DNA of 64,000 bases from Candidatus Zambryskibacteria bacterium RIFCSPHIGHO2_01_FULL_46_25 (GTDB taxonomy: Bacteria; Patescibacteriota; Minisyncoccia; Phycocordibacterales; Zambryskibacteraceae). The notes under the pieces were generated by a model. It had not been told where the DNA came from, made no database searches, and saw only the letters and a program-made list of their open reading frames with translations. The position numbers and the translations under genes were made by a program. Positions within the stretch are counted from its first letter, which is position 1, and each line of letters begins with the position of its first letter. The stretch is from positions 4,939 through 68,938 of the forward strand of contig MHVH01000006.1 of assembly GCA_001825155.1 (NCBI GenBank). The letters are read 5' to 3'. This document shows, one piece after another, positions 721 to 58,147 of the stretch.

Positions 721-1305
721 ATGATTTCAAGCCTTTCCGGCACGGTAAGATACAAGGACCTCCATAGCGTTGTGATAGACATCGGCGGGGTCGGATATAA
801 GGTGGCTGTGACCACGGATGTGGCTCTTGAGGCGCAACCAAGCTCCCCCATCTTCCTCTGGACACACCTGGCTGTCCGCGAGAATGCTCTCGACCTGTAT
901 GGTTTCCCGGATAAGGAAACCTTGGAAGTCTTCGAGCTTCTTATCACTATCCCCGGCATTGGACCGAAAACGGCTCTCGGCATCATGAACGTTGCCTCCC
1001 CCTCCATGCTCCGCCAGGCTGTGGCGAGCGGAGACACCACATACCTCACTCGCGTCTCTGGCATAGGCAAGAAGAACGCGGAGAAAATTGTGCTCGAACT
1101 CAGGGACAAGCTCAAAATAACCGAGACGGACGCTTCGACGGGCTCAGCGCAGGTAAGAGCAGAAGGAGATGCTCTCGAGGCCCTGGTCTCTCTAGGCTAC
1201 AGCGAGCGCGACGCGCGCGAAGCGTTGAAGAGAGTGCCTAAAGAAATTCAAGGGGCTGCGGAAAGAGTTAAGCACTCTCTTAAAATCCTAAGCACCAAAT
1301 CCTAA
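721..1305 (+). CDS. ruvA: Holliday junction DNA helicase RuvA
   Basis: GYKV and helix-hairpin-helix IPGIGPKTAL motifs; start set at the internal Met (MISSLSGTV) of ORF 694..1305; last 8 codons are encoded by the AAATCCTAA repeat. Confidence 0.85.
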   Translation: MISSLSGTVRYKDLHSVVIDIGGVGYKVAVTTDVALEAQPSSPIFLWTHLAVRENALDLYGFPDKETLEVFELLITIPGIGPKTALGIMNVASPSMLRQAVASGDTTYLTRVSGIGKKNAEKIVLELRDKLKITETDASTGSAQVRAEGDALEALVSLGYSERDAREALKRVPKEIQGAAERVKHSLKILSTKS

Positions 1306-1372
1306 ACTCTAAACAAATCCTAATGTTCAAAATTAAAAATTTAGGATTTAGAAATTAGGATTTAGGATTTTA
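1283..1372. repeat. cluster of AAATCCTAA units (minus orientation) followed by TTAGGATTT units (plus orientation), forming an imperfect long inverted repeat between ruvA and fpg
   Basis: Read directly: aaaatcctaagcaccaaatcctaaactctaaacaaatcctaa ... tttaggatttagaaattaggatttaggattt. Confidence 0.8.
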
Positions 1373-1377
1373 CTTTT

Positions 1378-2235
1378 ATGCCTGAATTACCAGAGGTCCA
1401 AACTACGGTAAACGGACTCAACAGAACCGTGCGCAATAGAAAAATCGTTGAAGTCTCAACGAGCTACAAAAGCGCTTATCATGCAGGCAAAGACAATATA
1501 AAAAACCCCGCATTTTTCAAAAAATTCAAAGAAATTGTCGAGGGCAGGAAAATTTTAAAAGCTGAGAGAAGGGCAAAGAATGTTCTCATTCATCTTTCGG
1601 GCGGACACACCATCATCGCCCACATGAAGATGACCGGACACTTCGTTTACGACAGGCCGAATTATCCATTTGTTCGTCTACAATTTAACCTTGACAATGC
1701 CAAGACCTTGGCATTGTCTGACATGCGCAAATTCGCCAAAGTTACGCTGGTAAATACTGCCGATGTGAATAAAAGCATGCATCTGGAACATCTCGGCCCG
1801 GAGCCACTCGAGAAAAATTTTCAATTTCCAAATTTCAATTTACAATTACACAAAAGGCCGAGGGCAAAAATAAAAACGGCCCTTATGGATCAAATTCTCA
1901 TCGCCGGAATCGGTAACATTTATTCCGACGAGATTCTCTGGAGAGCCGGGGTGCACCCCCTATCCGCCGTAAGCAAAATTCCCGCCAAAAATTTTAAACT
2001 CATGTTCGCTGCTATGAAAAAAGTTTTAAAAGAGGGCATAGATTTCGGCGGGGACTCGATGTCTGACTACCGGAATATCAAGGGCGAGAAAGGGAAATTC
2101 CAAGAACGCCACCGCGCTTACCGTCGCACAGGCAAGGCCTGTGGAAAAAAGGGTTGTAAGGGTGTGATAAAAAGAATTGTCGTCGGCGCCAGGAGCGCCC
2201 ACTTCTGCCCCATTCATCAGAAATTATATAAATGA
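1378..2235 (+). CDS. mutM: formamidopyrimidine-DNA glycosylase (Fpg/Nei family)
   Basis: N-terminal MPELPEV catalytic motif; C-terminal zinc finger CGKKGCKG...CPIHQ. Confidence 0.85.
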   Translation: MPELPEVQTTVNGLNRTVRNRKIVEVSTSYKSAYHAGKDNIKNPAFFKKFKEIVEGRKILKAERRAKNVLIHLSGGHTIIAHMKMTGHFVYDRPNYPFVRLQFNLDNAKTLALSDMRKFAKVTLVNTADVNKSMHLEHLGPEPLEKNFQFPNFNLQLHKRPRAKIKTALMDQILIAGIGNIYSDEILWRAGVHPLSAVSKIPAKNFKLMFAAMKKVLKEGIDFGGDSMSDYRNIKGEKGKFQERHRAYRRTGKACGKKGCKGVIKRIVVGARSAHFCPIHQKLYK

Positions 2236-2717
2236 AAACCTGCATCCTGATTTTAGAAAATCTGCGAAGCGTTGAGAATACAGCCTCGATTTTCCGCACT
2301 GCGGAGGGACTTGGTGTATCGAAAATAATTCTAGTCGGCACAACACCTGCGCCGATAGACAGGTTCGGTCGGAAGCGCGCCGATTTTGCCAAAGTTTCTT
2401 TGGGTTCCGAAGATATGATTGAGTGGAGTTATGTTGGGCAGGAAAATTTTCAATTAACAATTTCCAATTTGCAAAAGGAGGGATTCAAAATTATTGCGTT
2501 AGAACAGGATAGGAATTCAAATCCTTTGCAAGCTGTAAGCTCTAAGCTACAAGCTTTTGCCTTGATTGTCGGAAGCGAGGTAGAGGGGGTATCAAGGGGC
2601 ACCCTTGACATGTGCGACGAGATTCTAGAAATTCCAATGCGTGGCAAGAAAGAGTCTCTGAATGTCTCCGTCTCCACAGGCATCGCGCTCTATATGTTAT
2701 TATTGAATCATGCTTAA
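2232..2717 (+). CDS. TrmH/SpoU-family RNA 2'-O-methyltransferase
   Basis: SpoU-type motifs (ENLRSVEN, LIVGSEVEGVS, EIPMRG...SLNVSVSTGIALY). Confidence 0.7.
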   Translation: MKTCILILENLRSVENTASIFRTAEGLGVSKIILVGTTPAPIDRFGRKRADFAKVSLGSEDMIEWSYVGQENFQLTISNLQKEGFKIIALEQDRNSNPLQAVSSKLQAFALIVGSEVEGVSRGTLDMCDEILEIPMRGKKESLNVSVSTGIALYMLLLNHA

Positions 2718-3227: not shown

Positions 3228-3896
3228 ATGAAAATCATCGAGGAACATCGTTTGGCTCTCACTGTATTTGTAGTATATGTGATTGGTTTCTTTTCTTGGA
3301 ATCATTACCTGGGTAGATTTGGGTTTTTTGAATATGAACTTATACAAACTCGCTTTTTTTCTGCAGGTTTTATGTCAGTAACAATACTCTCTCTGATTGT
3401 TTTGGTTGTATGGCGATTATTAAAGACTGTCAATTATGAAAAAAGGTTGTGGAAAATTTTTCTTAATCTACCAATTTTGTATCAAATTTCCATATTGATT
3501 TTTATTCTCTGTACATGGACTCTGTATTTTTCCACTTCCGTCTTTCCTCTTCTTCCCCAACATTGGGGCGGAGCAAGACCCCAAATTGTAAGTATAATAG
3601 CGAGTTCTTCTACAATCGATTATTTGCGAGTAATGAACATACTTCCTGTAAATGCTGGGGCTGGCAAGAACCCAATTGAATCAGAAAAGATTTGTCTCTT
3701 ATATCAAAACAAGGAATTTTTGTTACTAGGTCATAGTAATGTGGAGATTAATCAAGAAGCTACCCTAGCAACAACTTCACCTAACCGAGTTTTAATCTTA
3801 AAACGCGAGCAGATAGAGGCATTGAGTGTTCTTCCTCTTGTAAACACCATTTGGGCAAGACAGCTTGGGTGTTCATTAATTGAACTGTATAAATAA
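3228..3896 (+). CDS. hypothetical polytopic membrane protein, AT-rich
   Basis: ORF track; several hydrophobic segments; markedly AT-richer than neighbours; immediately downstream of tRNA-Lys. Confidence 0.4.
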   Translation: MKIIEEHRLALTVFVVYVIGFFSWNHYLGRFGFFEYELIQTRFFSAGFMSVTILSLIVLVVWRLLKTVNYEKRLWKIFLNLPILYQISILIFILCTWTLYFSTSVFPLLPQHWGGARPQIVSIIASSSTIDYLRVMNILPVNAGAGKNPIESEKICLLYQNKEFLLLGHSNVEINQEATLATTSPNRVLILKREQIEALSVLPLVNTIWARQLGCSLIELYK

Positions 3897-4701: not shown

Positions 4702-5157
4702 AAGAGTTTTCTCGATGAAAGTTTCCGTCTCTTCTTCCCCTCTTCTTACCCGGTGGTAACCCTTGACCAAGTTTTCGGACAAGAGTTCCAGTTCTCCGGG
4801 TTTGAAATTTTTAATAAAACTTTTTGCCTTGCTGTACGGATATGGCTTCATCTCCGCTTCTTCGGCAGTCTTGGTGCGACTGGCGAGAAGCATAGTCTTG
4901 ACCTGCCAGAAAACTTTGTAGAAAACTTCTTCCGCTACCATCCCGGAAGCAAGCGCCTTTCGATAAATCACCCAGGCTTCTCTCTTATTTCGCCTGCCGA
5001 TGGCATCGGTCAAAGCAAATATATTGAATTCTCCCCGGCTCTTTAAGGCAAGGCCTTGGGAATCATCCTTAAGGCCTTGCCTTTCCCCGCCGAAAAGATC
5101 TTCCGAAGCGACTGTTTCCCCGAATAAGTTTTTCATATCTTTTCCATTTCTCCCCAA
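4690..5157 (-). CDS. DNA polymerase III delta-subunit (HolA) C-terminal domain-like protein; truncated, possible gene remnant
   Basis: FNIFALTDAIGRRNKREAWVIYRKALASGMVAEEVFYKVFWQVKTMLLA matches the HolA domain-III pattern; only 155 aa; overlaps polA stop and folD stop. Confidence 0.4.
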   Translation of the reverse strand: MGRNGKDMKNLFGETVASEDLFGGERQGLKDDSQGLALKSRGEFNIFALTDAIGRRNKREAWVIYRKALASGMVAEEVFYKVFWQVKTMLLASRTKTAEEAEMKPYPYSKAKSFIKNFKPGELELLSENLVKGYHRVRRGEEETETFIEKTLLGL

Positions 5158-7505
5158 TTTTTACCCGAATGCGCTTCGGCTACGATAGGCACACCTCGAC
5201 TTACGCTCGGGGCAAGCACCCCTTCCATGATTTTTTTGAAATTCTTGGCCACCTCATCCGCCAGCTCTTCGGAAACTTCGAAAACCAGTTCATCGTGTAC
5301 CTGGAGTACCAGGCGAACCTTGCCAGCCTCCCCGTTCTTCCTTATGTAATCATCAACTTTTTTCATAGCAATCTTGATGATGTCGGCTTGCGTGCCCTGG
5401 ATAGGAGCATTTACCGCCATGCGCTCAGCTTGCGCTCTGACATAAGGCAGAGGAGATTTGAACCCGGAGAAATATCGGCGCCGACCGAACATTGTCTCCG
5501 TATAGCCTCTGCGCGCCGTCTCGGCCTTAATCTTGTCAATATAAGCCGCAAGCCCGGCAAAGGTGCCGAAGTATTGATTGTAAAATTCCTGAGCCTCCTT
5601 CCTGTCAGTGCCGAGATTTTTCTGCAGGGCAGTAACACCCATGCCGTAGAGAATGCCGAAATTAATGGTCTTCGCTTTGACCCTCATCCCCTTGTCTACT
5701 TTATCGGCCGGCACCTTGAAAACCCGCGAAGCAACGCCGGCATGCACATCTTCGCCTCGTTTGAAAATATCAATAAGTTTCTTATCCCCCGAGAGAATGG
5801 CCGCCAGACGCAGTTCGATCTGGGAATAGTCGAGGGAGACGAGCTTATGCCCGTCTTCCGCTACAAAAGCGTTTCTGATAGCGCGACCGAGCTCTGTCTT
5901 GTTCGGAATGTTCTGGAGATTTGGGTTATTCGAAGCCATGCGTCCCGTTACCGCTCCATTCTGGAGGAAGGTGGAGTGCAGGCGGGAATCCCTGTCCAAG
6001 AGGGGCGGTATGGCGTCGATATAGGTCGAGAGAAGCTTCGAAAGTTCGCGGTAGTCGAGAATCAGGGCGATTATGCGGTGTTTGTCCCGCAACTTTTCAA
6101 GCTCTGACTCTCTTGTCGAGAGGGCGCCCCCGGGAGTTTTCTTCTGCCTCTTATCGGCGAGGCCCAGCTTCTCGAACAGCACGCTACCAAGCACTTTGGG
6201 AGAATTAATATTGAATTCTTCTCCCGCCTCCCGCCAAATTTCTTTCTCCAGGCGGGAAAGTTCTTTGTGATACGCGGCGGACAAGCCGGACAAAATTTTC
6301 TTATCGACCTTGATGCCCGTTTCATTCATCTTCTCAACAATAGTCATGAGAGGTTTTTCTATCTCTTCGAAAACAAATCTTACTTTTCTCTTATCAAGCT
6401 CCTGCTCAATAACCTTCCTCGCCTCTTTAATATCCTTCGCTTTGGTAAAATTCATCACATCTTCGACGGTTGGCGCAGTAATGTTCGAATCAATTACCCA
6501 CAGAGCAAGCGCCAACTCTTTCTCCTCTTCATTATTAACCCCCTCCGGTTTCACCACCTCCCCCTTGACAGGGGGAGGGTCGGATGCGGCTATCAATTTT
6601 TTCACTCTCTCGCTCAAGGTGCGGAAACCAAGCTCTTTGAAAAGTTCGAGAATATTTTCGAGTTTGAAATTTTCTCTCCACTCGGCAGGCAATTTGAAAT
6701 TAATCGGCGCGTCTGTGCGAATAGTCGCGAGTGTTTTCGAAAAGAGCGCCTCTTCTTCGTTCTCCTGCAGAAGGTTCTTTACGCGCTCAGTAATTGCCGC
6801 CTTCTTCCAATCATCATTCTTTTTCTTCAGCACTTTGTAAATTTCTTCTATCGTGCCAAATGATTGGATAAGGGATGTAGCTGTTTTCTCTCCGATTCCT
6901 TTAACACCAATAATGTTGTCCGACGGGTCACCGCGCAAACCCTTGTAGTCTATGAGCTTGTCGGGGGCGAAGCCGAATCTCTCAACCACCCTATCTTCAT
7001 CATAAATAATGGTGTCGTTGAGCCCTTTTTTAAGCGTATAGACCCGCACCTTCTTGCCACTCACGAGTTGCATGGTGTCCATGTCCCCAGAGGCGATAAT
7101 AATTTCAAGATTTAGGATTTGGGATTTAGGATTTAGGATTTCATGCACTATGGTGCCAATGATATCGTCCGCTTCGAAGCCTGGGCAAGAATAAATCGGA
7201 ATGCCAAAAACTTTAAAAATATCTTTCGCTCGCTCAAGCTGGAGCTCCAAGTTGGCATCGTTTTCCTTCCGTCCAGCCTTGTAACTCTCCGCTGCCTCGT
7301 GGCGGAAGGTCGGACCATGGAGGTCGAAGGCCGCCACAATATAATCGGGTTTCAAATCGTTAACAATTTTTATAAGCATGGCAACAAGACCATAGAGAGC
7401 ACCAGTTGGCTCGCCGGTGGAAGAAGCGGTGAAGTCCGGCAGCGCGTGATAAGCACGGTGAATAATGGCGTGCGAATCAAGTAAAATTAATTTCTTAGCT
7501 TTCAT
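5133..7505 (-). CDS. polA: DNA polymerase I (5'-3' exonuclease plus polymerase domains)
   Basis: N-terminal 5'-3' exonuclease motifs (LLDSHAIIHRAYHALP, GFEADD); polymerase motifs DYSQIELR and QVHDELVFE; contains an in-frame TTTAGGATTT repeat at 7108-7142. Confidence 0.9.
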   Translation of the reverse strand: MKAKKLILLDSHAIIHRAYHALPDFTASSTGEPTGALYGLVAMLIKIVNDLKPDYIVAAFDLHGPTFRHEAAESYKAGRKENDANLELQLERAKDIFKVFGIPIYSCPGFEADDIIGTIVHEILNPKSQILNLEIIIASGDMDTMQLVSGKKVRVYTLKKGLNDTIIYDEDRVVERFGFAPDKLIDYKGLRGDPSDNIIGVKGIGEKTATSLIQSFGTIEEIYKVLKKKNDDWKKAAITERVKNLLQENEEEALFSKTLATIRTDAPINFKLPAEWRENFKLENILELFKELGFRTLSERVKKLIAASDPPPVKGEVVKPEGVNNEEEKELALALWVIDSNITAPTVEDVMNFTKAKDIKEARKVIEQELDKRKVRFVFEEIEKPLMTIVEKMNETGIKVDKKILSGLSAAYHKELSRLEKEIWREAGEEFNINSPKVLGSVLFEKLGLADKRQKKTPGGALSTRESELEKLRDKHRIIALILDYRELSKLLSTYIDAIPPLLDRDSRLHSTFLQNGAVTGRMASNNPNLQNIPNKTELGRAIRNAFVAEDGHKLVSLDYSQIELRLAAILSGDKKLIDIFKRGEDVHAGVASRVFKVPADKVDKGMRVKAKTINFGILYGMGVTALQKNLGTDRKEAQEFYNQYFGTFAGLAAYIDKIKAETARRGYTETMFGRRRYFSGFKSPLPYVRAQAERMAVNAPIQGTQADIIKIAMKKVDDYIRKNGEAGKVRLVLQVHDELVFEVSEELADEVAKNFKKIMEGVLAPSVSRGVPIVAEAHSGKNWGEMEKI
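7108..7142. repeat. tandem TTTAGGATTT units embedded in-frame in polA (translated ILNPKSQILNLEI)
   Basis: agatttaggatttgggatttaggatttaggattt read directly. Confidence 0.85.
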
Positions 7506-24797: not shown

Positions 24798-26664
24798 TTG
24801 GGTTCTCAGCGGCTTGTTTTAAGCGCTCTTGTTGGGCGCGGATGGCCTCGTCTTTGTCCTCGATGGATTCTTGCCGGGCCTTCTTGATAGCCAGAACTTG
24901 TGAAGGGTCGGAAGTAATAATCTGATCTTCCGTATAAGAAGCAATAGCCTTGATGGCAACATGTTTGAGTCCCGCGAAGAAGATTCCTTCTCCGACATCT
25001 GATTCGAGCAGAAGATATTTCTCTTCGTCTGTGAGATTGAAAGTTTTTTGCAGCTCGTCAATCGTCGCCGGAGATTGCTTGAGAAGCATTTGGATGGAAG
25101 AGTTGGTAATGATGGGTATGCCGTATGGAGATTTGAGGAAGTCGCCAACATCTTGAGTAATAGTTGCCACACCGAGGAAATATTTGCGGCCCCTTTTAAC
25201 AAGGCCCATGAGGAATGAGGCCGTGTCCTCCGACTTCATCATCCACCAGGCTTCGTCGATGACGAGCAGGCGCTTCTTGAGCTCCTTCCTTATCGCGTTC
25301 CATATATAGTGAGTAACGATGTACATGGCGATTGGTTTTAGCTCATCTTCCATGTCTCGGAGAGAAAAGACGACAAACTTCCTGTTTATATCCACATTCG
25401 AAGGCCTGTTGATGAATCCGGCCCAGGTGCCTTTCGTGTACTTAGAGAGTCGTTGTGCCAGTGATTCTCCCCCATCCATGCCCGAGAGCACGAGCTCAAA
25501 GTCGCTCATGAGCGGTGGCTCAATGTTTCGGAAGTCGGAATCGGCGGTAATATCTTTCAAGGCGTATGTCTCGGTAATAGCTCGGTCGATAATGGCATCC
25601 TCTTCCGCGGTAAGACCGCCCATCATAAGCCGGAAGAGGCCAACGAGGTTAATGATGTTACTGCGCAAAATGTTTGCGGCGCTCTCATCTGGACCAGGTA
25701 TTGGTAGGTCGAACGGATTGATGTGGTGTTCGGAGTTAAGCGAGATGTTGAAGTATCGTCCGCCGGTCGCTTCGGCCATGTATTCGTACTCTTTCTCCGG
25801 GTCAATGACTATGACTTCCGTATCGAACATCAAGGTGCGGAGAATCTCAAGCTTCGTCGCGTATGACTTGCCGGCGCCGGCCTTGGCGAAGGTAACCGAG
25901 TTGTAGTTCTCGAGGGAGAAGCGGTCGAAGAGGATTAGAGACGAGTTGTGGCGGTTGATGCCGTAGAGAATACCCTTGTCCGAAGTGAGGTCGAAGGATG
26001 TGAATGGGAAAAGGGATGAGAGGGGCGAAGAATTGAGCTTCGAGTGGACGTTGAGCTGGTCGTTACCGAGAGGCAGGGTGCTCTGGTAGCCCTGCTCCTG
26101 CTGGAAGAGGGCCGGCTTCACGTATATAAGCTTTGCCTCAAGAATCGACTTAATCTCGCTCTCCACCTTGTCGAGCTCATCCGAGCTGTCGCCGTAGATT
26201 GTGATGTAGAGGCCCACGTCGAAGAGTTTCTCTTGCGCTTGTTGGAGCTGGTCACGCAGATTCTCGAGGTCTTGATAGGCGACATCAAGCATTGGGTCAC
26301 GCACAAGACCCTTTTCTTCCCTTGTATGAATCTGGCTTTGTACCTCGGCTACCTTCCTTTGGAATTGACGGAGCACCTTGGATGTCTCGATGGGGTGGAC
26401 GAAGATTGAGACGTCGAAAACCTTGTCCATGTTTATAATCGGCGAGAACCATCCTTCAGAGAGATAGCGCGGGTATGAGATGACGAAGAAGCTTCTAAGA
26501 ATTTTCTCCCCCAAGTTAATTTCCTTGGGACTTACCTTCAGCGCCGAGGGTGCGATGATGTCCTTGAGCTCGAGGACGCCCGCTTCAAAGATTTCTTTAG
26601 GCAAAATTGACGAAATTTTCGCCTCCTCTTCCTTCTTGCCGATTAATTTATCAAAAAATCCCAT
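24781..26664 (-). CDS. virB4: VirB4/TrbE/CagE-family type IV secretion ATPase
   Basis: Walker A FAKAGAGKSYATK; Walker B LLVIDEAWWMM; C-terminal VirB4 signature GVATITQDVGDF. Confidence 0.8.
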   Translation of the reverse strand: MGFFDKLIGKKEEEAKISSILPKEIFEAGVLELKDIIAPSALKVSPKEINLGEKILRSFFVISYPRYLSEGWFSPIINMDKVFDVSIFVHPIETSKVLRQFQRKVAEVQSQIHTREEKGLVRDPMLDVAYQDLENLRDQLQQAQEKLFDVGLYITIYGDSSDELDKVESEIKSILEAKLIYVKPALFQQEQGYQSTLPLGNDQLNVHSKLNSSPLSSLFPFTSFDLTSDKGILYGINRHNSSLILFDRFSLENYNSVTFAKAGAGKSYATKLEILRTLMFDTEVIVIDPEKEYEYMAEATGGRYFNISLNSEHHINPFDLPIPGPDESAANILRSNIINLVGLFRLMMGGLTAEEDAIIDRAITETYALKDITADSDFRNIEPPLMSDFELVLSGMDGGESLAQRLSKYTKGTWAGFINRPSNVDINRKFVVFSLRDMEDELKPIAMYIVTHYIWNAIRKELKKRLLVIDEAWWMMKSEDTASFLMGLVKRGRKYFLGVATITQDVGDFLKSPYGIPIITNSSIQMLLKQSPATIDELQKTFNLTDEEKYLLLESDVGEGIFFAGLKHVAIKAIASYTEDQIITSDPSQVLAIKKARQESIEDKDEAIRAQQERLKQAAENPNAGTE

Positions 26665-26673
26665 ATATTCATT

Positions 26674-26738
26674 ATAAACCCTAAACCCTAAATCCTAAAC
26701 TCTAAATAAGCACCAAATCCAAAATAATAAGTCCTAAA
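26674..26738. repeat. half MITE-like repeat (TATAAACCCTAAA terminus plus AAATCCTAA units) immediately upstream of the virB4 start
   Basis: tataaaccctaaaccctaaatcctaaactctaaataagcaccaaatcc; shares the 17-mer aaatcctaaactctaaa with 1309-1325. Confidence 0.75.
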
Positions 26739-27105
26739 CATTGACAGCCTTGGCTTTCTCTAAAATTGAGCCAAACATTTTTCTAAACTCCACAGCCTCT
26801 TGTATCAGATCATTTCTTACTGATATTTCCTCAGTGTTAGGTTCAGCCAAAGAAAGCCAGTACTCACTCTCCTTAGCTTCTTTTCTAGAAATTTTGATAC
26901 GCATAAAAAAGTCCTTTCTACTAAGAGATTCATTAGCTTCAATGTAGTTTGCTCCTACGGAACCCGAAGAACGTATCAATTGCTTGCCATACTCAAAGTT
27001 CGGAGTTGTTTTAGGCAGCTTTTTGGTATAGTCTCTTACTTTTCTTGCGAAAACTAAACATCTGTCTTCCAAGTCATATTTTTTAGGATTTTGAATTTCG
27101 GACAT
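26734..27105 (-). CDS. four-helix-bundle protein (23S rRNA IVS protein / Avd-like family)
   Basis: YGKQLIRSSGSVGANYIEANESLSRKDFFMRIKISRKEAKESEYWLSL matches the family; residues 4-9 (IQNPKK) are encoded by a TTTAGGATTTT repeat. Confidence 0.65.
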   Translation of the reverse strand: MSEIQNPKKYDLEDRCLVFARKVRDYTKKLPKTTPNFEYGKQLIRSSGSVGANYIEANESLSRKDFFMRIKISRKEAKESEYWLSLAEPNTEEISVRNDLIQEAVEFRKMFGSILEKAKAVNV

Positions 27106-27111
27106 TAAAAT

Positions 27112-27146
27112 TTATTTAGGATTTAGCGCTTAGAATTTAGGATTTG
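27112..27146. repeat. TTTAGGATTT repeat units plus an adjacent palindrome
   Basis: tttatttaggatttagcgcttagaatttaggattt followed by caaaatgcgctaacgcattttg. Confidence 0.75.
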
Positions 27147-27155
27147 CAAAATGCG

Positions 27156-27794
27156 CTAACGCATTTTGATTGGCTTTTCCGTCTCACCTGGATTGAATGC
27201 TTTGTAGAAAAGCTCGATAGTCTCCTCTGTCCCCAACCGTGCAACCCTAATGCCGGAGCGCACAAGGCCCTGCTCTACCACGGACATGCGCTCCTCAAGC
27301 TGGCTTCTCTCCTCTTCGAAGCTGCTATTGCTCGTTTTCTTGTCTTTCCTTCCGCCGCCGATGCCAAGACTTGAGACGAAGTTACCTGCCGCTCCGACGC
27401 TGAGCGTTGCCGGGTTGTAGGGTACCACGATGAAGAAGTGCTTGGTCATAATGTTGGCATCCTCGGTAAACTTCTTGATGAATTCGATATATTCCCTGAC
27501 CTGAATCTTCAAAAGGTTGTTGGTCTGCTTCGTTTCTTGCCCCTCAAGAAGCGCGATGTATGGGCGTATGTCGAGCTTCCTCGACTGGACAAGTATCTGG
27601 ACCGAGAAATCGAGGGAGTTAAGGAAGTCTTGGAATTGGAGAAGAATGGCGTTTCTCTCGTCCTCGCTCTTGAGGGAGAAGTTGAGTGAGGAACAGAGAA
27701 GAATAGCCCGCATGCCGCCGTCCTTAAGTATGACGACACCATCGCGCACCTCCTTGATGGGAACGAACTCTTGAGTGGCATTACTAGATGGCAT
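27156..27794 (-). CDS. hypothetical protein of the type-IV-secretion-like locus
   Basis: Start set at MPSSNATQEF (ATG 27792-94) rather than the TTG-extended ORF ending at 27830; no family recognised. Confidence 0.4.
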   Translation of the reverse strand: MPSSNATQEFVPIKEVRDGVVILKDGGMRAILLCSSLNFSLKSEDERNAILLQFQDFLNSLDFSVQILVQSRKLDIRPYIALLEGQETKQTNNLLKIQVREYIEFIKKFTEDANIMTKHFFIVVPYNPATLSVGAAGNFVSSLGIGGGRKDKKTSNSSFEEERSQLEERMSVVEQGLVRSGIRVARLGTEETIELFYKAFNPGETEKPIKMR

Positions 27795-27800
27795 ACATCT

Positions 27801-27924
27801 AGTATAAACCCTAAAATCATTAAATCCCAAATCCTAAGCACTAAATTCTAAATAAATCCCAAATTCCAAGTATAAAAGACCCAAACCATTTAGAGTTTAG
27901 GATTTAGGGTTTAGGGTTTATACT
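27801..27924. mobile_element. MITE-like element (~124 bp) with 15-bp terminal inverted repeats AGTATAAACCCTAAA / TTTAGGGTTTATACT and internal AAATCCTAA units
   Basis: Read directly; termini are perfect reverse complements; no coding capacity. Confidence 0.7.
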
Positions 27925-27930
27925 ATAGCC

Positions 27931-28368
27931 ATGCGATTCCAAGTACCGCAATTTATAGAAGTCGAGGATAAAATTTTCGGTCCTTTGACCTTCAAACAAT
28001 TTGTCTACGTTGCCGGCGGAGGAGGCATCTGCGTTATCCTCTTCGTTTTCCTGCCGAAATTCCTGGCCATTCTCCTGTCCGTGCCCATAGTTGCATTCGC
28101 TGGAGCACTCGCGTTTTACAAGCCCAACGACAAGCCCTTTATAAACTTTGTGGAATCATTCTTCCACTACAGCCTCAAAAGCAAGCTCTATATATGGAAG
28201 AAAACAGACAACTTACAACCAACAACCGACAACAAAATAAGCGCCAAGCCGATAGAACAGATTTACGTACCAAAGTTGTCGGAATCGAAACTCAGAGAGC
28301 TTACGTGGAGCCTTGATATCAAAGAAAACAGGAATCCCATCACAGACGAGAAATCCAATAGGATTTAA
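27931..28368 (+). CDS. PrgI/VirB3-like type IV secretion membrane protein
   Basis: VPQFIEVEDKIFGPLTFKQFVYVAGGGGICVILFVF resembles the PrgI N-terminal pattern; two TM helices; last 6 codons encoded by the TAGGATTT repeat. Confidence 0.5.
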   Translation: MRFQVPQFIEVEDKIFGPLTFKQFVYVAGGGGICVILFVFLPKFLAILLSVPIVAFAGALAFYKPNDKPFINFVESFFHYSLKSKLYIWKKTDNLQPTTDNKISAKPIEQIYVPKLSESKLRELTWSLDIKENRNPITDEKSNRI

Positions 28369-28386
28369 TGCTTAGGATTTAGAGTT

Positions 28387-28953
28387 TTACTGCAGTGGTT
28401 CCCTGTACGGATCGACTCCGCTTGGATAAGTGGATTTCAATGGCTCATTTACCGGCACCTGAGCCGTTTGGGATTTTTCTTCTTCCTTATTCAACTTATT
28501 AACCTTATTCAACTCGACGCTCGCGGCCTCGTGTACTCCCTCACCCGGCTTAGTCGCGAGCGTTTCTTTCGCAAAATCCGGTTCGAGTACGGGGAGAGTG
28601 GTGGGGGTTGTTGCTGTCGGTGCTTGAACAGATGTGTTTTTTTCCAATTCCTCGACTTTTTGAGAAATTACTTTAAAAATTTTCTCATTTGCCTCTGTTG
28701 CAATGTTGAATGCCAAGTTTTCATCAATTTCTGCCTCGCGCGCCATGTTTGCGACGTAATCATCCGGACTCTCGAAGCCATAGAGAATAAACATCGTTTC
28801 TCTCTCGACAATTTCTGCCTGCTCCAGCTTCAAATTATGCAGTCCGGCAATCTGGTTAACGACAGATTTCCACGGAACAGCGCTGAACGCCTTCTGCAGT
28901 GCCGGCGGCAGTTTTTTCAATTGCTCTTCAACCATAGAGTTCTCGTCATCCAT
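28387..28953 (-). CDS. hypothetical protein (acidic, Thr/Pro-rich linker)
   Basis: ORF track only. Confidence 0.4.
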   Translation of the reverse strand: MDDENSMVEEQLKKLPPALQKAFSAVPWKSVVNQIAGLHNLKLEQAEIVERETMFILYGFESPDDYVANMAREAEIDENLAFNIATEANEKIFKVISQKVEELEKNTSVQAPTATTPTTLPVLEPDFAKETLATKPGEGVHEAASVELNKVNKLNKEEEKSQTAQVPVNEPLKSTYPSGVDPYREPLQ

Positions 28954-36735: not shown

Positions 36736-37392
36736 TTAAATCCCCGTTTCTTCCAACTCTTCCAATAAAATTTTTCTTTCAATAATACCCCGCAAACTCT
36801 CTTCAGCAAATTTTTTATACTCCGCTCTATTTTTAAACTGCTCCAAAATCCTTTCTTTAGCGCAAATCGGTTCGGGGAAATTTTTATTCATATACTCTTC
36901 CCAGCTTGTTTGACAAATTGTGGACGCTCGGCTTCCACGACTATGAGCTAGGTGATTTAAATTTATATATGCGCTCAAATGAAGCAAATATTCATTTGTG
37001 TCTATAAGTTTTGCCTTAAATTTCCCCTGGAATAAAGAACCGGATCTTTTATATTTCGCGTTGAAATACTTACTAAATCCGGTGCCTAAGCGATGCATAA
37101 ACTTTTCAATCCCCTTTTCTGATACTTGTTCAAGCATAAAATGAAAGTGATTCGGATTGATGCCGTAAACAGTGAACTTTACCAAGGGTTTTCCCTCAGT
37201 TGTGGAAGCTCGGCTTCCACGTTTGCGTTCCCTATTCTCGTAGATGCTTCCTATGGGCTTTATCGTGTTGAACTCTCTCATACTTTTTATGAATCGTTCT
37301 AAATCCTTATGTTCCAAAAGAATTTTTCTTCCGTCAACTCCACGGTTGTAAATGTGGTAATACTCTTTTTCTACAAATGGGATATCACGCAT
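36736..37392 (-). CDS. IS200/Y1 HUH transposase-like protein, probable REP-associated tyrosine transposase (RAYT)
   Basis: YHIYNRG N-terminus, HUH motif NHFHFML, C-terminal LSAYINLNHL tyrosine region; contains two in-frame copies of the palindrome. Confidence 0.55.
   Translation of the reverse strand: MRDIPFVEKEYYHIYNRGVDGRKILLEHKDLERFIKSMREFNTIKPIGSIYENRERKRGSRASTTEGKPLVKFTVYGINPNHFHFMLEQVSEKGIEKFMHRLGTGFSKYFNAKYKRSGSLFQGKFKAKLIDTNEYLLHLSAYINLNHLAHSRGSRASTICQTSWEEYMNKNFPEPICAKERILEQFKNRAEYKKFAEESLRGIIERKILLEELEETGI
36917..36940. repeat. REP-like palindrome copy 2 (inside the transposase ORF, translated SRGSRASTI)
   Basis: aattgtggacgctcggcttccacg. Confidence 0.85.
37198..37222. repeat. REP-like palindrome copy 3 (inside the transposase ORF, translated KRGSRASTT)
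   Basis: cagttgtggaagctcggcttccacgt; perfect 8-bp stem gtggaagc/gcttccac with 3-nt loop. Confidence 0.85.
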
Positions 37393-37409
37393 TCATAATA
37401 TCTTAACAC

Positions 37410-37434
37410 AATTGTGGAAGCTCGGCTTCCACAG
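37410..37434. repeat. REP-like palindrome copy 4 (intergenic, about 20 nt upstream of the transposase start)
   Basis: caattgtggaagctcggcttccaca. Confidence 0.85.
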
Positions 37435-37452
37435 GACCTGCACACACAGAAA

Positions 37453-55972: not shown

Positions 55973-57445
55973 TTATTTCACCTTGTATTCTTCTCGGATT
56001 TTTTCGACTTCTTTCTCGTCTTCGCTCGCGTTTTTTGCTCTCGCTTCCCTGCCGACACGGGCAAGTTCTTGCGGGTCGAGGTCGTATAGTTCCTTTACTC
56101 GCGTTTCCAAATAATTTTTGTCATTCTTCTTCGGTTCGTCGAGCACTTCGGAGAGAAGTATTTCGAGAATGAAGCCTACGTGCGGACCCGGGCCCGCTTT
56201 AGTCAGCTTCATAATATCTTCGCCACCGACACTAAGCTGTTTTACGGAAATGGGATCACGCATAACCTCTTCTATCATCGAGTGGTACTTGCGCAGGCGA
56301 TACGGCGTCTCCTTGGGTCTCCCGGTGCCTATTCGATCGGCTGCCCTCATGTTCATAAGGTCCCAGACAAGGTCCGGGCCGACATTTCTCACCATTCTTC
56401 GCACCGCGGAGAGCGTAATTTGCTCCGTATCGGAGAAGAACATGTGCCAGCGCACGAGCTTGTGTGTCTTCTCGATTATTTCCTTTGAGAATTTCAAATT
56501 CTCAAGGACTTTTCGCGTAATACGCGAACCCACCACCTCGTGTCCATAGAAAGTGGGCTGACCATTCTTCACGGCCTTGGTGTGCGGCTTGGCAATGTCG
56601 TGGAAGAGCGCGGACAAACGGACGTGGAGAGGAAAATTTCTCTTCGCGGCATGGTTAAGAGAGCGAAGTAAGTGCTCCCAGACGGTGTAGGCATGCGCCT
56701 GATTCTGTTCCACTCCTATCCCCTTCTCGAATTCTTCCGAAATATATTTGAGTATGCTGAGCCGCGCGCACATCTCGAGTGCTATGCCCGGCTCGGGAGA
56801 CATAATAATTTTTGCGAACTCGTCTCTTATTCTTTCTTTCGAAATTTTCTCAAGCAGGTGCGTGCATTTGCTTATCGCTTCCAGCGTTTCGTGTTCTACG
56901 GCGAAACCGAGCTCTGCCGAGAGGCGTAGCGCGCGGAAAATGCGCAAAGCGTCTTCGCCGAAGCGTTCCTCCGGCTTCCCCACCGTGCGAATAATCTTTT
57001 TCTCAATATCTTTCTGCCCGCCGAATGGATCAATAGGATTTAGGATTTGAGATTTAGGATTTATGTCCAGAGCAATTGCATTCATAGTAAAATCTCTTCT
57101 CGCCAGGTCGTCTTCGAGCTTGTTCGCCCACTCTATTTTGTCTGGATGGCGTGCGTCGGAATATTCTGACTCGAGTCTGTACGGAGTGACTTCAACAATG
57201 CCAGTCGTCTCAGTCTTCACTCCCACTGTGCCGAAATCGTTTTCGTAGAAAGAATCCGGGAAAAGTTCAATGATCTTTTCCGGCGTGGCAATAGTGGTGA
57301 TGTCCCAATCTTTCGGTGTGCGGCCCATAATCAAATCGCGCACGCATCCGCCAACGAGAAAATTCTCGAATCCGGCATCGCTCAAGACGCGCGAGATTTC
57401 TCTCACATCTTTTGGAATTTCAAATTTAGATTTAATGGATGCCAT
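55973..57445 (-). CDS. cca: CCA-adding tRNA nucleotidyltransferase (polymerase head plus HD domain)
   Basis: Start set at MASIKSKF; GGCVRDLIMG...DWDIT head motif; HD motif (HDIAKP); in-frame TTTAGGATTT repeat at 57034-57064. Confidence 0.8.
   Translation of the reverse strand: MASIKSKFEIPKDVREISRVLSDAGFENFLVGGCVRDLIMGRTPKDWDITTIATPEKIIELFPDSFYENDFGTVGVKTETTGIVEVTPYRLESEYSDARHPDKIEWANKLEDDLARRDFTMNAIALDINPKSQILNPIDPFGGQKDIEKKIIRTVGKPEERFGEDALRIFRALRLSAELGFAVEHETLEAISKCTHLLEKISKERIRDEFAKIIMSPEPGIALEMCARLSILKYISEEFEKGIGVEQNQAHAYTVWEHLLRSLNHAAKRNFPLHVRLSALFHDIAKPHTKAVKNGQPTFYGHEVVGSRITRKVLENLKFSKEIIEKTHKLVRWHMFFSDTEQITLSAVRRMVRNVGPDLVWDLMNMRAADRIGTGRPKETPYRLRKYHSMIEEVMRDPISVKQLSVGGEDIMKLTKAGPGPHVGFILEILLSEVLDEPKKNDKNYLETRVKELYDLDPQELARVGREARAKNASEDEKEVEKIREEYKVK
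57034..57064. repeat. tandem TAGGATTT units embedded in-frame in cca (translated INPKSQILNPID)
   Basis: taggatttaggatttgagatttaggattt. Confidence 0.85.
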
Positions 57446-57604
57446 TGGTTTAATTATACATTTTGTTGTGGTCAGGAATATTCTGCTCGCCGTCGCTCGC
57501 AGAATTTCACGACCCTGACTCGGCTGTTTTGCGAGGCCGCAAAACATGCCTCCGTCCCGCACTAGTAGCGGAAATCAGCAGCAGTGCTGATTTCCGGCTC
57601 TAGT

Positions 57605-57677
57605 GCGCCCAGAGGGACTCGAACCCCCAACCCCTTGTTCCGAAGACAAGTACTCTATCCATTGAGCTATGGGCGCA
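57605..57677 (-). tRNA. tRNA-Arg, anticodon TCG
   Basis: Minus-strand cloverleaf: acceptor GCGCCCA/TGGGCGC; anticodon stem CTTGT/ACAAG with loop CTTCGGA; T-arm GGGGG-TTCGAGT-CCCTC. Confidence 0.65.
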
Positions 57678-57739
57678 ACAAACATATCCTACAATAATAC
57701 TCGATTTTTTTCCTTTATTACGCTATTATCTTTTCACTA

Positions 57740-57810
57740 GCGGGTATGGTTCAGTGGCAGAACAATTGGTTGCCAATCAATTGACGGGAGTTCGATTCTC
57801 CCTACCCGCA
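57740..57810 (+). tRNA. tRNA-Gly, anticodon GCC
   Basis: Acceptor GCGGGTA/TACCCGC; anticodon loop TTGCCAA; T-arm GGGAG-TTCGATT-CTCCC. Confidence 0.65.
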
Positions 57811-57828
57811 CATGGTGGCGCTCATAGT

Positions 57829-57899
57829 CGGGGTGTAGTACAGCAGTAGTATACACGCTTCGGGTGCGTGAGACCCGAGTGCGATTCTCGGCACCCCGA
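57829..57899 (+). tRNA. tRNA-Pro, anticodon CGG
   Basis: Acceptor CGGGGTG/CACCCCG; anticodon stem CACGC/GCGTG with loop TTCGGGT; T-arm CCGAG-TGCGATT-CTCGG. Confidence 0.6.
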
Positions 57900-57917
57900 C
57901 TCTGAGCATCACCGAAG

Positions 57918-57988
57918 CGGGCTGTAGTATAGTGGTAGTATATATGCTTTGGGAGCATAAGGTCTGGGTTCGATTCCCAGCAGCCCGA
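57918..57988 (+). tRNA. tRNA-Pro, anticodon TGG
   Basis: Acceptor CGGGCTG/CAGCCCG; anticodon stem TATGC/GCATA with loop TTTGGGA; T-arm CTGGG-TTCGATT-CCCAG. Confidence 0.6.
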
Positions 57989-57996
57989 CACGTAAA

Positions 57997-58067
57997 CGGA
58001 GTATAGTATAGTGGTAGTATACATCCATGGGGTGGATGAGGCTCCGGTTCGATTCCGGGTACTCCGA
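57997..58067 (+). tRNA. tRNA-Pro, anticodon GGG
   Basis: Acceptor CGGAGTA/TACTCCG; anticodon stem CATCC/GGATG with loop ATGGGGT; T-arm CCGG-TTCGATT-CCGG. Confidence 0.6.
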
Positions 58068-58076
58068 AACAATAAT

Positions 58077-58147
58077 GCGGGACTAGTTTAGTGGTAAAAC
58101 AACAGTTTTCCAAACTGTGGTCGGGAGTCCGATTCTCCCGTCCCGCA
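58077..58147 (+). tRNA. tRNA-Trp, anticodon CCA
   Basis: Acceptor GCGGGAC/GTCCCGC; anticodon stem CAGTT/AACTG with loop TTCCAAA; T-arm GGGAG-TCCGATT-CTCCC. Confidence 0.7.

Follow-up and report, generated by a model that had tools for sequence, protein, structure and literature searches.

What is the 124-bp palindrome that separates two divergently transcribed genes of a type IV secretion system (T4SS)-like cluster in a groundwater Parcubacteria genome, and does it bring promoters to its neighbors? The element occupies positions 27801-27924 of a 64,000-nucleotide stretch (hereafter the window) of contig MHVH01000006.1 from Candidatus Zambryskibacteria bacterium RIFCSPHIGHO2_01_FULL_46_25, between a TraC-like gene on the minus strand and a PrgI-family gene on the plus strand. 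A sequence-only reading had described it as resembling a miniature inverted-repeat transposable element (MITE), with perfect 15-bp inverted termini that place a TATA(A/C)T box 6 nt upstream of three start codons and so wire the secretion-like genes for leaderless expression. The explanation favored here, which is probable and well short of certain, is that the element is a divergent spacer with predicted back-to-back leaderless promoters, set inside a relative of an intervening sequence (IVS)-like cassette, a relative that itself has no open reading frame (ORF).

The termini AGTATAAACCCTAAA (27801-27815) and TTTAGGGTTTATACT (27910-27924) are exact reverse complements, as had been claimed, and a further copy, TTTAGGGTTTATAAT, is found at 26671-26685 on the minus strand. 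A search of the window for TTTAGGGTTTATAMT with at most two mismatches returns only three matches (26671-26685 minus, 27801-27815 minus and 27910-27924 plus) where 0.25 are expected, and none of 100 shuffled sequences reaches three. Exactly 6 nt separate each copy from an ATG, that of virB4 (26662-26664, minus), of the TraC-like gene (27792-27794, minus) or of the PrgI-family gene (27931-27933, plus). Relatives conserve the N-termini that begin at these three start codons (MGFFDKLIGK, M..SNATQEFVPIKEV and MRFQVPQFIEVEDK), which upholds the box, spacer and ATG geometry at all three genes. No Shine-Dalgarno sequence is present in the spacers GAATAT (virB4), AGATGT (TraC-like) and ATAGCC (PrgI). 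The element was also correctly said to be devoid of coding capacity: 27801-27924 holds no real ORF, just a 13-codon mini-ORF on the minus strand.

The 136-nt spacer between the two genes folds as one long hairpin on both the plus strand (-38.4 kcal/mol, z -7.9) and the minus strand (-42.7 kcal/mol, z -4.8). The interior of the element consists of two inverted, degenerate 7-nt tandem arrays (TTTAGRR/YYCTAAA) of about four heptamers each. Seven is the sole period between 4 and 11 that yields arrays in the window, with six regions against none in shuffled sequences. Further TTTAGRR arrays are found between ruvA and fpg, where 1286-1313 and 1340-1367 form an inverted pair, and at 27082-27142, 26672-26706 and 28372-28383, and two more lie inside long ORFs. 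What looks like a perfect 15-bp terminus is made up of a heptamer unit (TTTAGGG) and, joined to it, TTTATAMT with the -10 hexamer inside, and the left end of other family members is without the 15-bp inverted sequence. The 124-bp element is thus a real hairpin-forming repeat, an imperfect palindrome of degenerate heptamers.

Whether the -10-like box belongs to the repeat or to the genome was examined by comparing the first ATG of 71 long ORFs in the window with 681 internal control ATGs. TANNNT stands exactly 6 nt before the ATG (TANNNT-N6-ATG) in 13 of the 71 genes (18%) against 0.6% of controls, and no other spacer length is found in more than 8 genes. At spacers of 5-9 nt the motif precedes 23 of 71 genes, compared with 5% of controls (p = 3e-13). 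Shine-Dalgarno-like motifs precede 4 of the 71 (6%), below the control rate of 13%. Many window genes also carry TG 1-2 nt upstream of the -10-like box, the look of an extended -10 element. Arrays accompany only three of the 13 N6 genes. In L009, the closest relative, arrays are absent at these junctions, and TAAAAT-N6-ATG precedes PrgI and TATAAT-N6-ATG the TraC-like gene. Because ten N6 genes of the window and the L009 junctions have the geometry without an array, it is organism-wide and is not conferred by the repeat.

The claim that the repeat terminus supplies a -10 element therefore holds in a narrower form, which is clearest at virB4. The empty site of this gene (…AAATAACATGG) contains no -10-like box; in the window, both the box and the 6-nt spacer lie within inserted DNA, so the repeat brings the only promoter-like signal of that gene. 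The same module recurs elsewhere. (TTTAGRR)x4-TTTATAAT-N6-ATG precedes virB4 and PrgI in the window, PrgI in L144, and pth in L047 and L159. The virB4 gene of L144 has a four-unit module with N7, and L212 has six units followed by TTTATAAT-GAATAT-ATG before an unrelated, unannotated gene, with a spacer identical to that of virB4 in the window. Three-unit modules are found with N3 before cysS and with N9 before rpmF. The wiring is not specific to type-IV-secretion-like genes.

Of the 12 modules tabulated, 8 have four units ahead of the unit that holds the -10 box. In this layout the array covers the spacer and the -35 region, where TTTAGG at 17 bp would be a weak -35 element. In left arms a -10 box is present only where a gene faces them, as at the divergent pair of the window and in L135, and it is absent in co-directional settings and in cassettes. 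This distribution argues for a functional box as opposed to an intrinsic terminal repeat.

Several observations weigh against the promoter interpretation. The array is dispensable for the signal, since ten of the 13 N6 genes lack one. A full sigma-70 consensus scan of the region is not above chance (2 found, 3.4 expected), because the -35 match is weak; in that scan the TATACT of the opposite arm (27801-27806) is paired with a -35 element, TTGGGA, at 18 nt. Some right-arm boxes are poor or misplaced: TTTTACT-N3 (fpg), TTTTAAA-N4 (L276), TATAAT-N3 (cysS) and N9 (rpmF). In principle, TANNNT-N6-ATG might serve translation instead. Comparison with L135, L011 and L158 shows the palindrome at this site to be inherited, and it is invariant in the population, so that this copy gives no sign of mobility. 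Both scans of large sequence collections (below) were swamped by irrelevant matches and hence give no census of the family.

Acting at the RNA level, the repeat could do without any promoter. The operon would be transcribed from upstream, the arms would be cut by RNase III as in rRNA intervening sequences, and the AT-rich box would be a Shine-Dalgarno-independent ribosome entry signal. The arms beside virB4 do enclose a four-helix-bundle ORF in a long stem, as in the PF05635-bearing intervening sequences of 23S rRNA, and in L009 TATAAT-N6-ATG also stands at junctions within the operon, where it overlaps the stop codon of the preceding gene. Bacteria of the candidate phyla radiation (CPR) have kept RNase III (PMC12641178). 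Even so, this account is decidedly improbable. The box has the exact -10 signature (T1, A2, T6), and the spike at a spacer of 6 (13 genes, at most 8 elsewhere) matches the distance from a -10 element to the start. In addition, the divergent PrgI/TraC-like pair has no upstream operon, and its promoters must lie in the 136-bp spacer.

The leaderless-promoter explanation gains a second element from the neighboring virB4 gene. The half copy noticed there (26671-26738) is indeed a copy of the repeat, and it proves to belong to a larger cassette, of which it forms the right arm and 27106-27155 the left. The cassette ORF encodes a 123-aa protein of the PF05635/TIGR02436 family, with PDB 2rld among its evidence. 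Its arms (27106-27155 and 26665-26733) are complementary (duplex -38.5 kcal/mol, z -6.8), and in the predicted RNA fold of 26665-27155 they pair and hold the ORF in the loop, giving the stem expected of an intervening sequence. The 124-bp element has the stem and lacks the ORF. Seven cassettes from five genomes were examined (that of the window and six from four others), and all seven have complementary period-7 arms (z -4.2 to -7.4). Their heptamers are the same as in the window in some cases, and are (TTGTTCA)n and (TGATTCT)n in L013.

Across the window, L135 and L144, the ORF-less elements can be aligned with the cassette arms along both arms at 56-79% identity, and they share conserved cores such as TTTGGTGCTTATTTAGAG. 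Strong concerted evolution of arms within genomes was considered and is unsupported, as the ORF-less element and the cassette arms are 61-79% identical within a genome, a range that overlaps the 56-76% found between genomes. The element is the ORF-less form of a repeat family whose full form has a PF05635 gene between the same two arms. Kinship with an ORF-bearing cassette is therefore the one sense in which the term MITE-like holds.

A small hairpin at the left edge of the cassette spans the stop codon of the TraC-like gene. Its stems differ by species and are still complementary (AAAATGCG/CGCATTTT, AAGTGAG/CTCACTT and ACTCA/TGAGT), with counterparts at about 1940-1958 in L135 and about 1946-1958 in L144 and none at the empty sites of L009 and L011. 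On the plus strand the small hairpin (27147-27168) has a terminator-like score, although the terminator scan as a whole was not above the expectation from shuffled sequence.

Relatives were fetched with the TraC-like protein; L-numbers throughout are locus labels. L009 is the closest to the window (99% identity in the VirB4 N-terminus, 91% in the TraC-like protein), followed by L011 (94% and 86%). L009 has a compact operon of PrgI, TraC-like and virB4 genes in which the TraC-like/virB4 junction reads TAA-C-ATG, with neither cassette nor palindrome; the same junction in L011 is also TAA-C-ATG, and the cassette is absent. At this junction the cassette is present in the window, L135/L139 and L144, with four-helix-bundle proteins 78% and 69% identical to that of the window, and L013 carries a different cassette there. 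The junction upstream of PrgI is equally variable: it is 9 nt in L009, an ORF-less TTTAGRR palindrome in L144, a cassette with different heptamers in L013, and a palindrome plus inverted PrgI in L135. Related cassettes also stand ahead of PrgI in L276-L283 and, in L266-L275, ahead of pilB, which belongs to a pilus operon.

Because close relatives have the clean empty site TAA-C-ATG, the 491-bp cassette has been gained or lost as a unit. On this comparison, the junction pattern requires repeated gain or precise loss, however it is polarized, and the family is dynamic as a unit. More broadly, these loci indicate that the TTTAGRR repeat family is old and widespread in Parcubacteria/Patescibacteria and that its members come and go at gene junctions as whole units. 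Empty sites, and with them presence/absence polymorphism, were found for the cassette and for the ORF-less element upstream of PrgI, and not for the copy at 27801-27924.

That copy differs from the insertion suggested earlier. Homologous palindromes occupy the same divergent PrgI/TraC-like site in L135, L011 and L158, so the copy at 27801-27924 is inherited and is no recent insertion. It is identical in 8 population contigs from different samples. The comparison with empty sites thus indicates gain or loss of the cassette, cleanly absent from L009 and L011, and gives no sign of mobility for the 124-bp copy. The idea of a portable promoter is supported for the cassette at virB4 and by the recurring module.

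These results bear on the proposal of a genuine MITE, in which a non-autonomous transposon with 15-bp terminal inverted repeats would recently have inserted at 27801-27924, with outward promoters at both ends. The perfect termini, a size of ~124 bp and a hairpin typical of MITEs, and the polymorphic presence of family members in relatives are all consistent with such an event. It is nevertheless very unlikely in light of the orthologous palindromes and of the structure of the repeat. No direct repeat, or target-site duplication, exists between the flanks CATACATCT and ATAGCCATG, and none was found at the cassette junctions against empty sites either. The inverted 15-mer breaks down into a heptamer unit and a -10 box, and other copies do not have it at their left end. 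Finally, the family has no transposase-bearing parent, its ORF-bearing form encoding instead the 123-aa four-helix bundle.

Two large-collection scans bear on the distribution of the family. A genome-contig scan (596 Gb) with the bare 15-mer, which is too short for this purpose, gave chance matches in unrelated phyla, and L047 (labeled Saccharibacteria) was the only genuine module among the matches listed. A metagenome scan with TTTAGRRTTTAGRRTTTATAMT was dominated by long degenerate (TTTAGGG)n tracts, with about ten CPR-type matches among the matches listed. Most of the metagenome matches (L146-L265) are such tracts from lake and Antarctic samples, and they have the look of telomeric repeats of eukaryotes. 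Plant-type telomeres share their unit with the bacterial heptamer, a coincidence by which pattern searches are easily misled. In the literature, no description was found of these arrays, or of four-helix-bundle cassettes outside rRNA in CPR bacteria, and the repeat family is apparently undescribed. Nor were leaderless promoters or the N6 signature found reported in Parcubacteria.

Heptamer arrays are also found inside coding genes. In both polA and the gene for the CCA-adding enzyme (cca), the single unit whose TAA would be in frame reads CAA. The two products have 5 aa more than solved (PDB) homologs, exactly at the array and in a loop. Among the N-terminal PolA domains of 120 Parcubacteria, this loop is 20 aa long in 74, and it is 24 aa here. 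In other lineages (P0250, P0293, P0295, P0329 and others) the same PolA loop has 7-aa-periodic inserts, namely LEIGNWKLEI, KIENCELKI and KIENCKLE; LEIGNWKLEI is consistent with (TTGGAAA)n and KIENCELKI with (AAAATTG)n. These inserts suggest that heptanucleotide arrays of lineage-specific sequence have invaded coding loops across the group. In L013, whose cassette arms are (TGATTCT)n, the AGAATCA orientation is found inside two coding genes including PrgI (2946-2974 and 3838-3866), so that arm type and intragenic arrays match within that genome.

Other features of intragenic arrays were recorded. On the plus strand, an ATG begins within 3-4 nt after the last array unit in polA (7143) and cca (57062). 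A different period-7 array, TGCAAGC TGTAAGC TCTAAGC TACAAGC (2527-2555), is located in an RlmB/TrmH-like methyltransferase gene (2232..2717, plus), where it is translated as LQAVSSKLQA. A similar array, (AGCTACA)n, is present in a Staskawiczbacteria contig (L022, 6228-6261).

Alternatively, the palindrome might have evolved in place without ever being mobile, its arrays arising by replication slippage in AT-rich spacers and being kept as operator, curvature, terminator or insulator DNA, with the -10 boxes simply the promoters of the genes themselves. Array-free -10-N6-ATG in the window and in relatives is in keeping with this idea, as are the variation of arrays at orthologous sites in unit number and sequence between species, the lack of target-site duplication and the invariance within the population. 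What makes it unlikely is the behavior of the family as a whole: the 491-bp cassette is found either whole or not at all, the closest relatives having clean empty sites, and arms at unrelated loci and in different genomes are homologous, including conserved non-heptamer cores such as TTTGGTGCTTATTTAGAG. The recurrence of four units in 8 of 12 modules is unlike random microsatellite length, and the same arrays are found in frame in polA and cca.

Another scenario concerns how such palindromes would spread. The window encodes a RAYT-like (repetitive extragenic palindromic (REP)-associated tyrosine transposase) HUH/Y1 protein (36736..37392), and palindromes could be disseminated by this enzyme as single-stranded hairpins in the manner of REPINs, with the promoter role secondary. 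The gene product (218 aa) has HUH (HFHF) and YI..N motifs and a weak match to REP-associated tyrosine transposases. The palindromes have the size of REPINs, fold into hairpins and lack a target-site duplication, which is the expectation for Y1 enzymes; like REPs and REPINs, they also form extragenic palindromic doublets at many sites. The match, however, scores 24.9 bits against a cut-off of 80, and the RAYT-like gene (minus strand) has no adjoining heptamer arrays, its only upstream hairpin being an unrelated one of 9 bp. REPs, moreover, are not tandem heptamers and carry no ORFs. This scenario is compatible with the leaderless-promoter explanation and seems improbable. The hairpin in question, TGTGGAAGC-tcg-GCTTCCACA, is a perfect one and lies just upstream of the 218-aa gene (37405-37435).

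Four further candidates were rejected. In TIGR-Tas arrays, spacers accompany units of ~36 nt, and a Tas protein with a Nop domain is required. These arrays were considered since they are found in CPR bacteria (PMC12045711), and neither ~36-nt units with spacers nor a Tas protein is present here. A diversity-generating retroelement, suggested by the relationship of PF05635 to bAvd, is contradicted by the lack of a reverse transcriptase among the neighboring genes and of a template/variable repeat pair. A phase-variable microsatellite does not agree with the identity of the region in 8 contigs from different samples. Iterons or the chromosomal origin were considered in view of the proximity of dnaA and dnaN (~8 kb away), but arrays are likewise found in polA, in cca and at unrelated loci of other genomes.

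Under the favored explanation, RNA polymerase would use the -10 box while the array occupies the spacer and the -35 region, and transcription would start at or beside the A of the ATG to produce leaderless mRNAs. This fits a genome that is nearly without Shine-Dalgarno sequences and uses TANNNT-N6-ATG generally. Where the family lands between translationally coupled genes, the -10-N6 of the right arm would keep the downstream gene expressed. The paired arms probably act as a hairpin that insulates against or terminates read-through transcripts, or that is processed like an rRNA intervening sequence.

The palindromes may also have served in rearrangement. PrgI is inverted in the window, L011, L135 and L158 and not in L009, L013, L144 and L276, a pattern that departs from the protein tree. 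It is bracketed by heptamer palindromes in the window (27801-27924 and 28352-28392) and in L135, where the equivalent of the 28352-28392 remnant is a full palindrome, and it has one orientation in all 8 population contigs. The inverted homology of the two palindromes could have allowed the PrgI gene to flip.

A bolder and rather doubtful extension is that PF05635 cassettes with lineage-specific heptamer arms constitute a previously unrecognized class of selfish elements of Patescibacteria, akin to the ORF-bearing intervening sequences of rRNA. Such elements would colonize gene junctions, persist by offering the displaced gene a leaderless promoter in the right arm, decay to ORF-less palindromes that act as bidirectional promoters and inversion substrates, and seed the in-frame inserts of polA and cca, with the four-helix-bundle protein or the RAYT-like HUH enzyme as the mobility factor.

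The features of the locus and the related arrays in the window are collected below.

Table 1. Coordinates of the 124-bp element, its neighbors and related arrays in the window (a point marks features without strand)
Feature	Position	Strand	Details and evidence
ORF-less palindrome of degenerate TTTAGRR heptamers, the divergent spacer between the TraC-like (minus) and PrgI (plus) genes	27801..27924	.	Sequence, period-7 scan, fold, alignment
Right-arm module of the palindrome	27889..27924	+	TTTAGAG TTTAGGA TTTAGGG TTTAGGG TTTATACT; TATACT 27919-27924, N6 = ATAGCC, PrgI ATG 27931
Opposite arm of the palindrome, more degenerate	27801..27860	-	End = TTTAGGGTTTATACT; TATACT 27801-27806, N6 = AGATGT, TraC-like ATG 27792-27794
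PrgI-family gene, 145 aa	27931..28368	+	Pfam PF12666; inverted vs operon order in L009, L013, L144, L276
TraC-like gene, 212 aa	27156..27794	-	PF26593
Four-helix-bundle cassette	26665..27155	-	Left arm 27106-27155, ORF 26734-27105, right arm 26665-26733
Right-arm module of the cassette	26665..26706	-	TTTAGAG TTTAGGA TTTAGGG TTTAGGG TTTATAAT then GAATAT; TATAAT 26671-26676, virB4 ATG 26662-26664
VirB4/TraC-type ATPase gene, 627 aa	24781..26664	-	Pfam PF19044, PF12846, PF01935
Small hairpin across the TraC-like stop codon, left edge of the cassette	27147..27168	.	AAAATGCG-TTAG-CGCATTTT
Decayed second palindrome or array remnant	28352..28392	.	Between the PrgI 3' end and the stop codon of the 188-aa gene
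Second ORF-less palindrome of the TTTAGRR family	1270..1377	+	Between ruvA and fpg/mutM
Heptamer array in frame in polA	7104..7138	+	Gene 5133..7505 minus; translation ILNPKSQILN
Heptamer array in frame in the CCA-adding enzyme gene	57034..57066	+	Gene 55973..57562 minus; translation INPKSQILNP

The T4SS-like cluster on the minus strand of the window comprises the VirB4/TraC-type ATPase, PF05635 and TraC-like genes, with the PrgI-family gene on the plus strand. The genes dnaA, dnaN, rnpA and yidC lie ~8 kb from the element region. At the second ORF-less palindrome (1270-1377), the left arm encodes the C-terminus of ruvA (KILSTKS*) and the right arm ends in TTTAGGA TTTTACT TTT ATG. Six tRNA genes are clustered beside the CCA-adding enzyme gene (57604-58147). 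An Rfam scan of the window returned tRNAs alone, with no rRNA and no known RNA family on the element.

If confirmed, these findings would mean that most genes of a Parcubacteria genome start with no Shine-Dalgarno sequence and have a -10 box placed exactly 6 nt ahead of the ATG, an architecture that would affect gene calling, start-codon choice and the expression of CPR genes. The long-unexplained PF05635 "23S rRNA intervening-sequence protein" would be tied to a recognizable cassette outside rRNA, composed of inverted heptamer arrays, an ORF and an outward promoter, that is gained or lost at operon junctions; this would make it possible to test where ORF-bearing intervening sequences come from and what they do. 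Lineage-specific heptanucleotide arrays, which invade intergenic DNA as well as loops of essential proteins, would also be an overlooked route by which minimal genomes rearrange (as in the PrgI inversion), replace promoters and acquire insertions in their proteins.

Promoter-bearing palindromic repeats are not new in principle, Correia elements being an example. Correia elements (CREE/NEMIS) of Neisseria are intergenic palindromes of ~100-150 bp whose ends can create outward -10/-35 boxes. When transcribed, they fold into hairpins at which RNase III cleaves or transcription stops. They have 26-bp terminal inverted repeats and a TA target duplication, and are not known in an ORF-bearing form. 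They are the closest functional analog of the element described here, both being palindromic intergenic repeats whose ends create, or here are predicted to create, promoters; processing of the transcript hairpin is a Correia feature. The Zambryskibacteria element differs in its tandem-heptamer arms, the lack of a duplication, a predicted promoter of the leaderless type (N6 to ATG) and the existence of a PF05635 ORF-bearing form.

The closest structural relatives are the ORF-bearing intervening sequences of 23S rRNA in Leptospira, Coxiella and others, which share the protein family and the stem-and-loop layout. PF05635/TIGR02436-type intervening sequences are also reported in rRNA insertions of CPR bacteria (PMC11270868). 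Here, in contrast, the cassette is located between protein genes (TraC-like/virB4) of a T4SS-like operon, with no rRNA in the window. Heptamer arrays make up its arms, the right one closing with the -10-N6-ATG of the next gene.

A likeness to the REP/BIME/REPIN families is seen in the short hairpin-forming extragenic palindromes at many junctions, the lack of target-site duplication and the RAYT-like gene in the window. However, no cognate RAYT flanked by repeats is found here, and the tandem-heptamer substructure, ORF-bearing members and intragenic in-frame copies set the family apart. Rickettsia palindromic elements (RPEs) insert as whole elements of 100-150 bp. As with RPEs, members of the present family lie in frame in essential protein genes (polA and cca) at tolerant surface loops, but only single arms of 28-35 nt are found in these genes, where CAA replaces the TAA that one unit would have in frame.

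For the start signal, the parallel is with Actinobacteria and Deinococcus, in which TANNNT near the start without a Shine-Dalgarno sequence is the signature used for inferring leaderless transcription. As relayed in PMC12641261, the account of Cortes et al. (2013) gives leaderless genes of these groups a -10 element 6-7 nt before the start codon, a weak -35 and no Shine-Dalgarno sequence. The genome studied here has the same TANNNT spike at N6 and the same Shine-Dalgarno depletion; it differs in belonging to another phylum, the Patescibacteria.

Taken together, the element fails the defining tests of a strict MITE, having neither target-site duplication nor transposase parent, and those of an rRNA intervening sequence and of a REPIN. 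It is best described as a palindromic promoter-bearing repeat, its promoter role being predicted, that is coupled to a PF05635 cassette.

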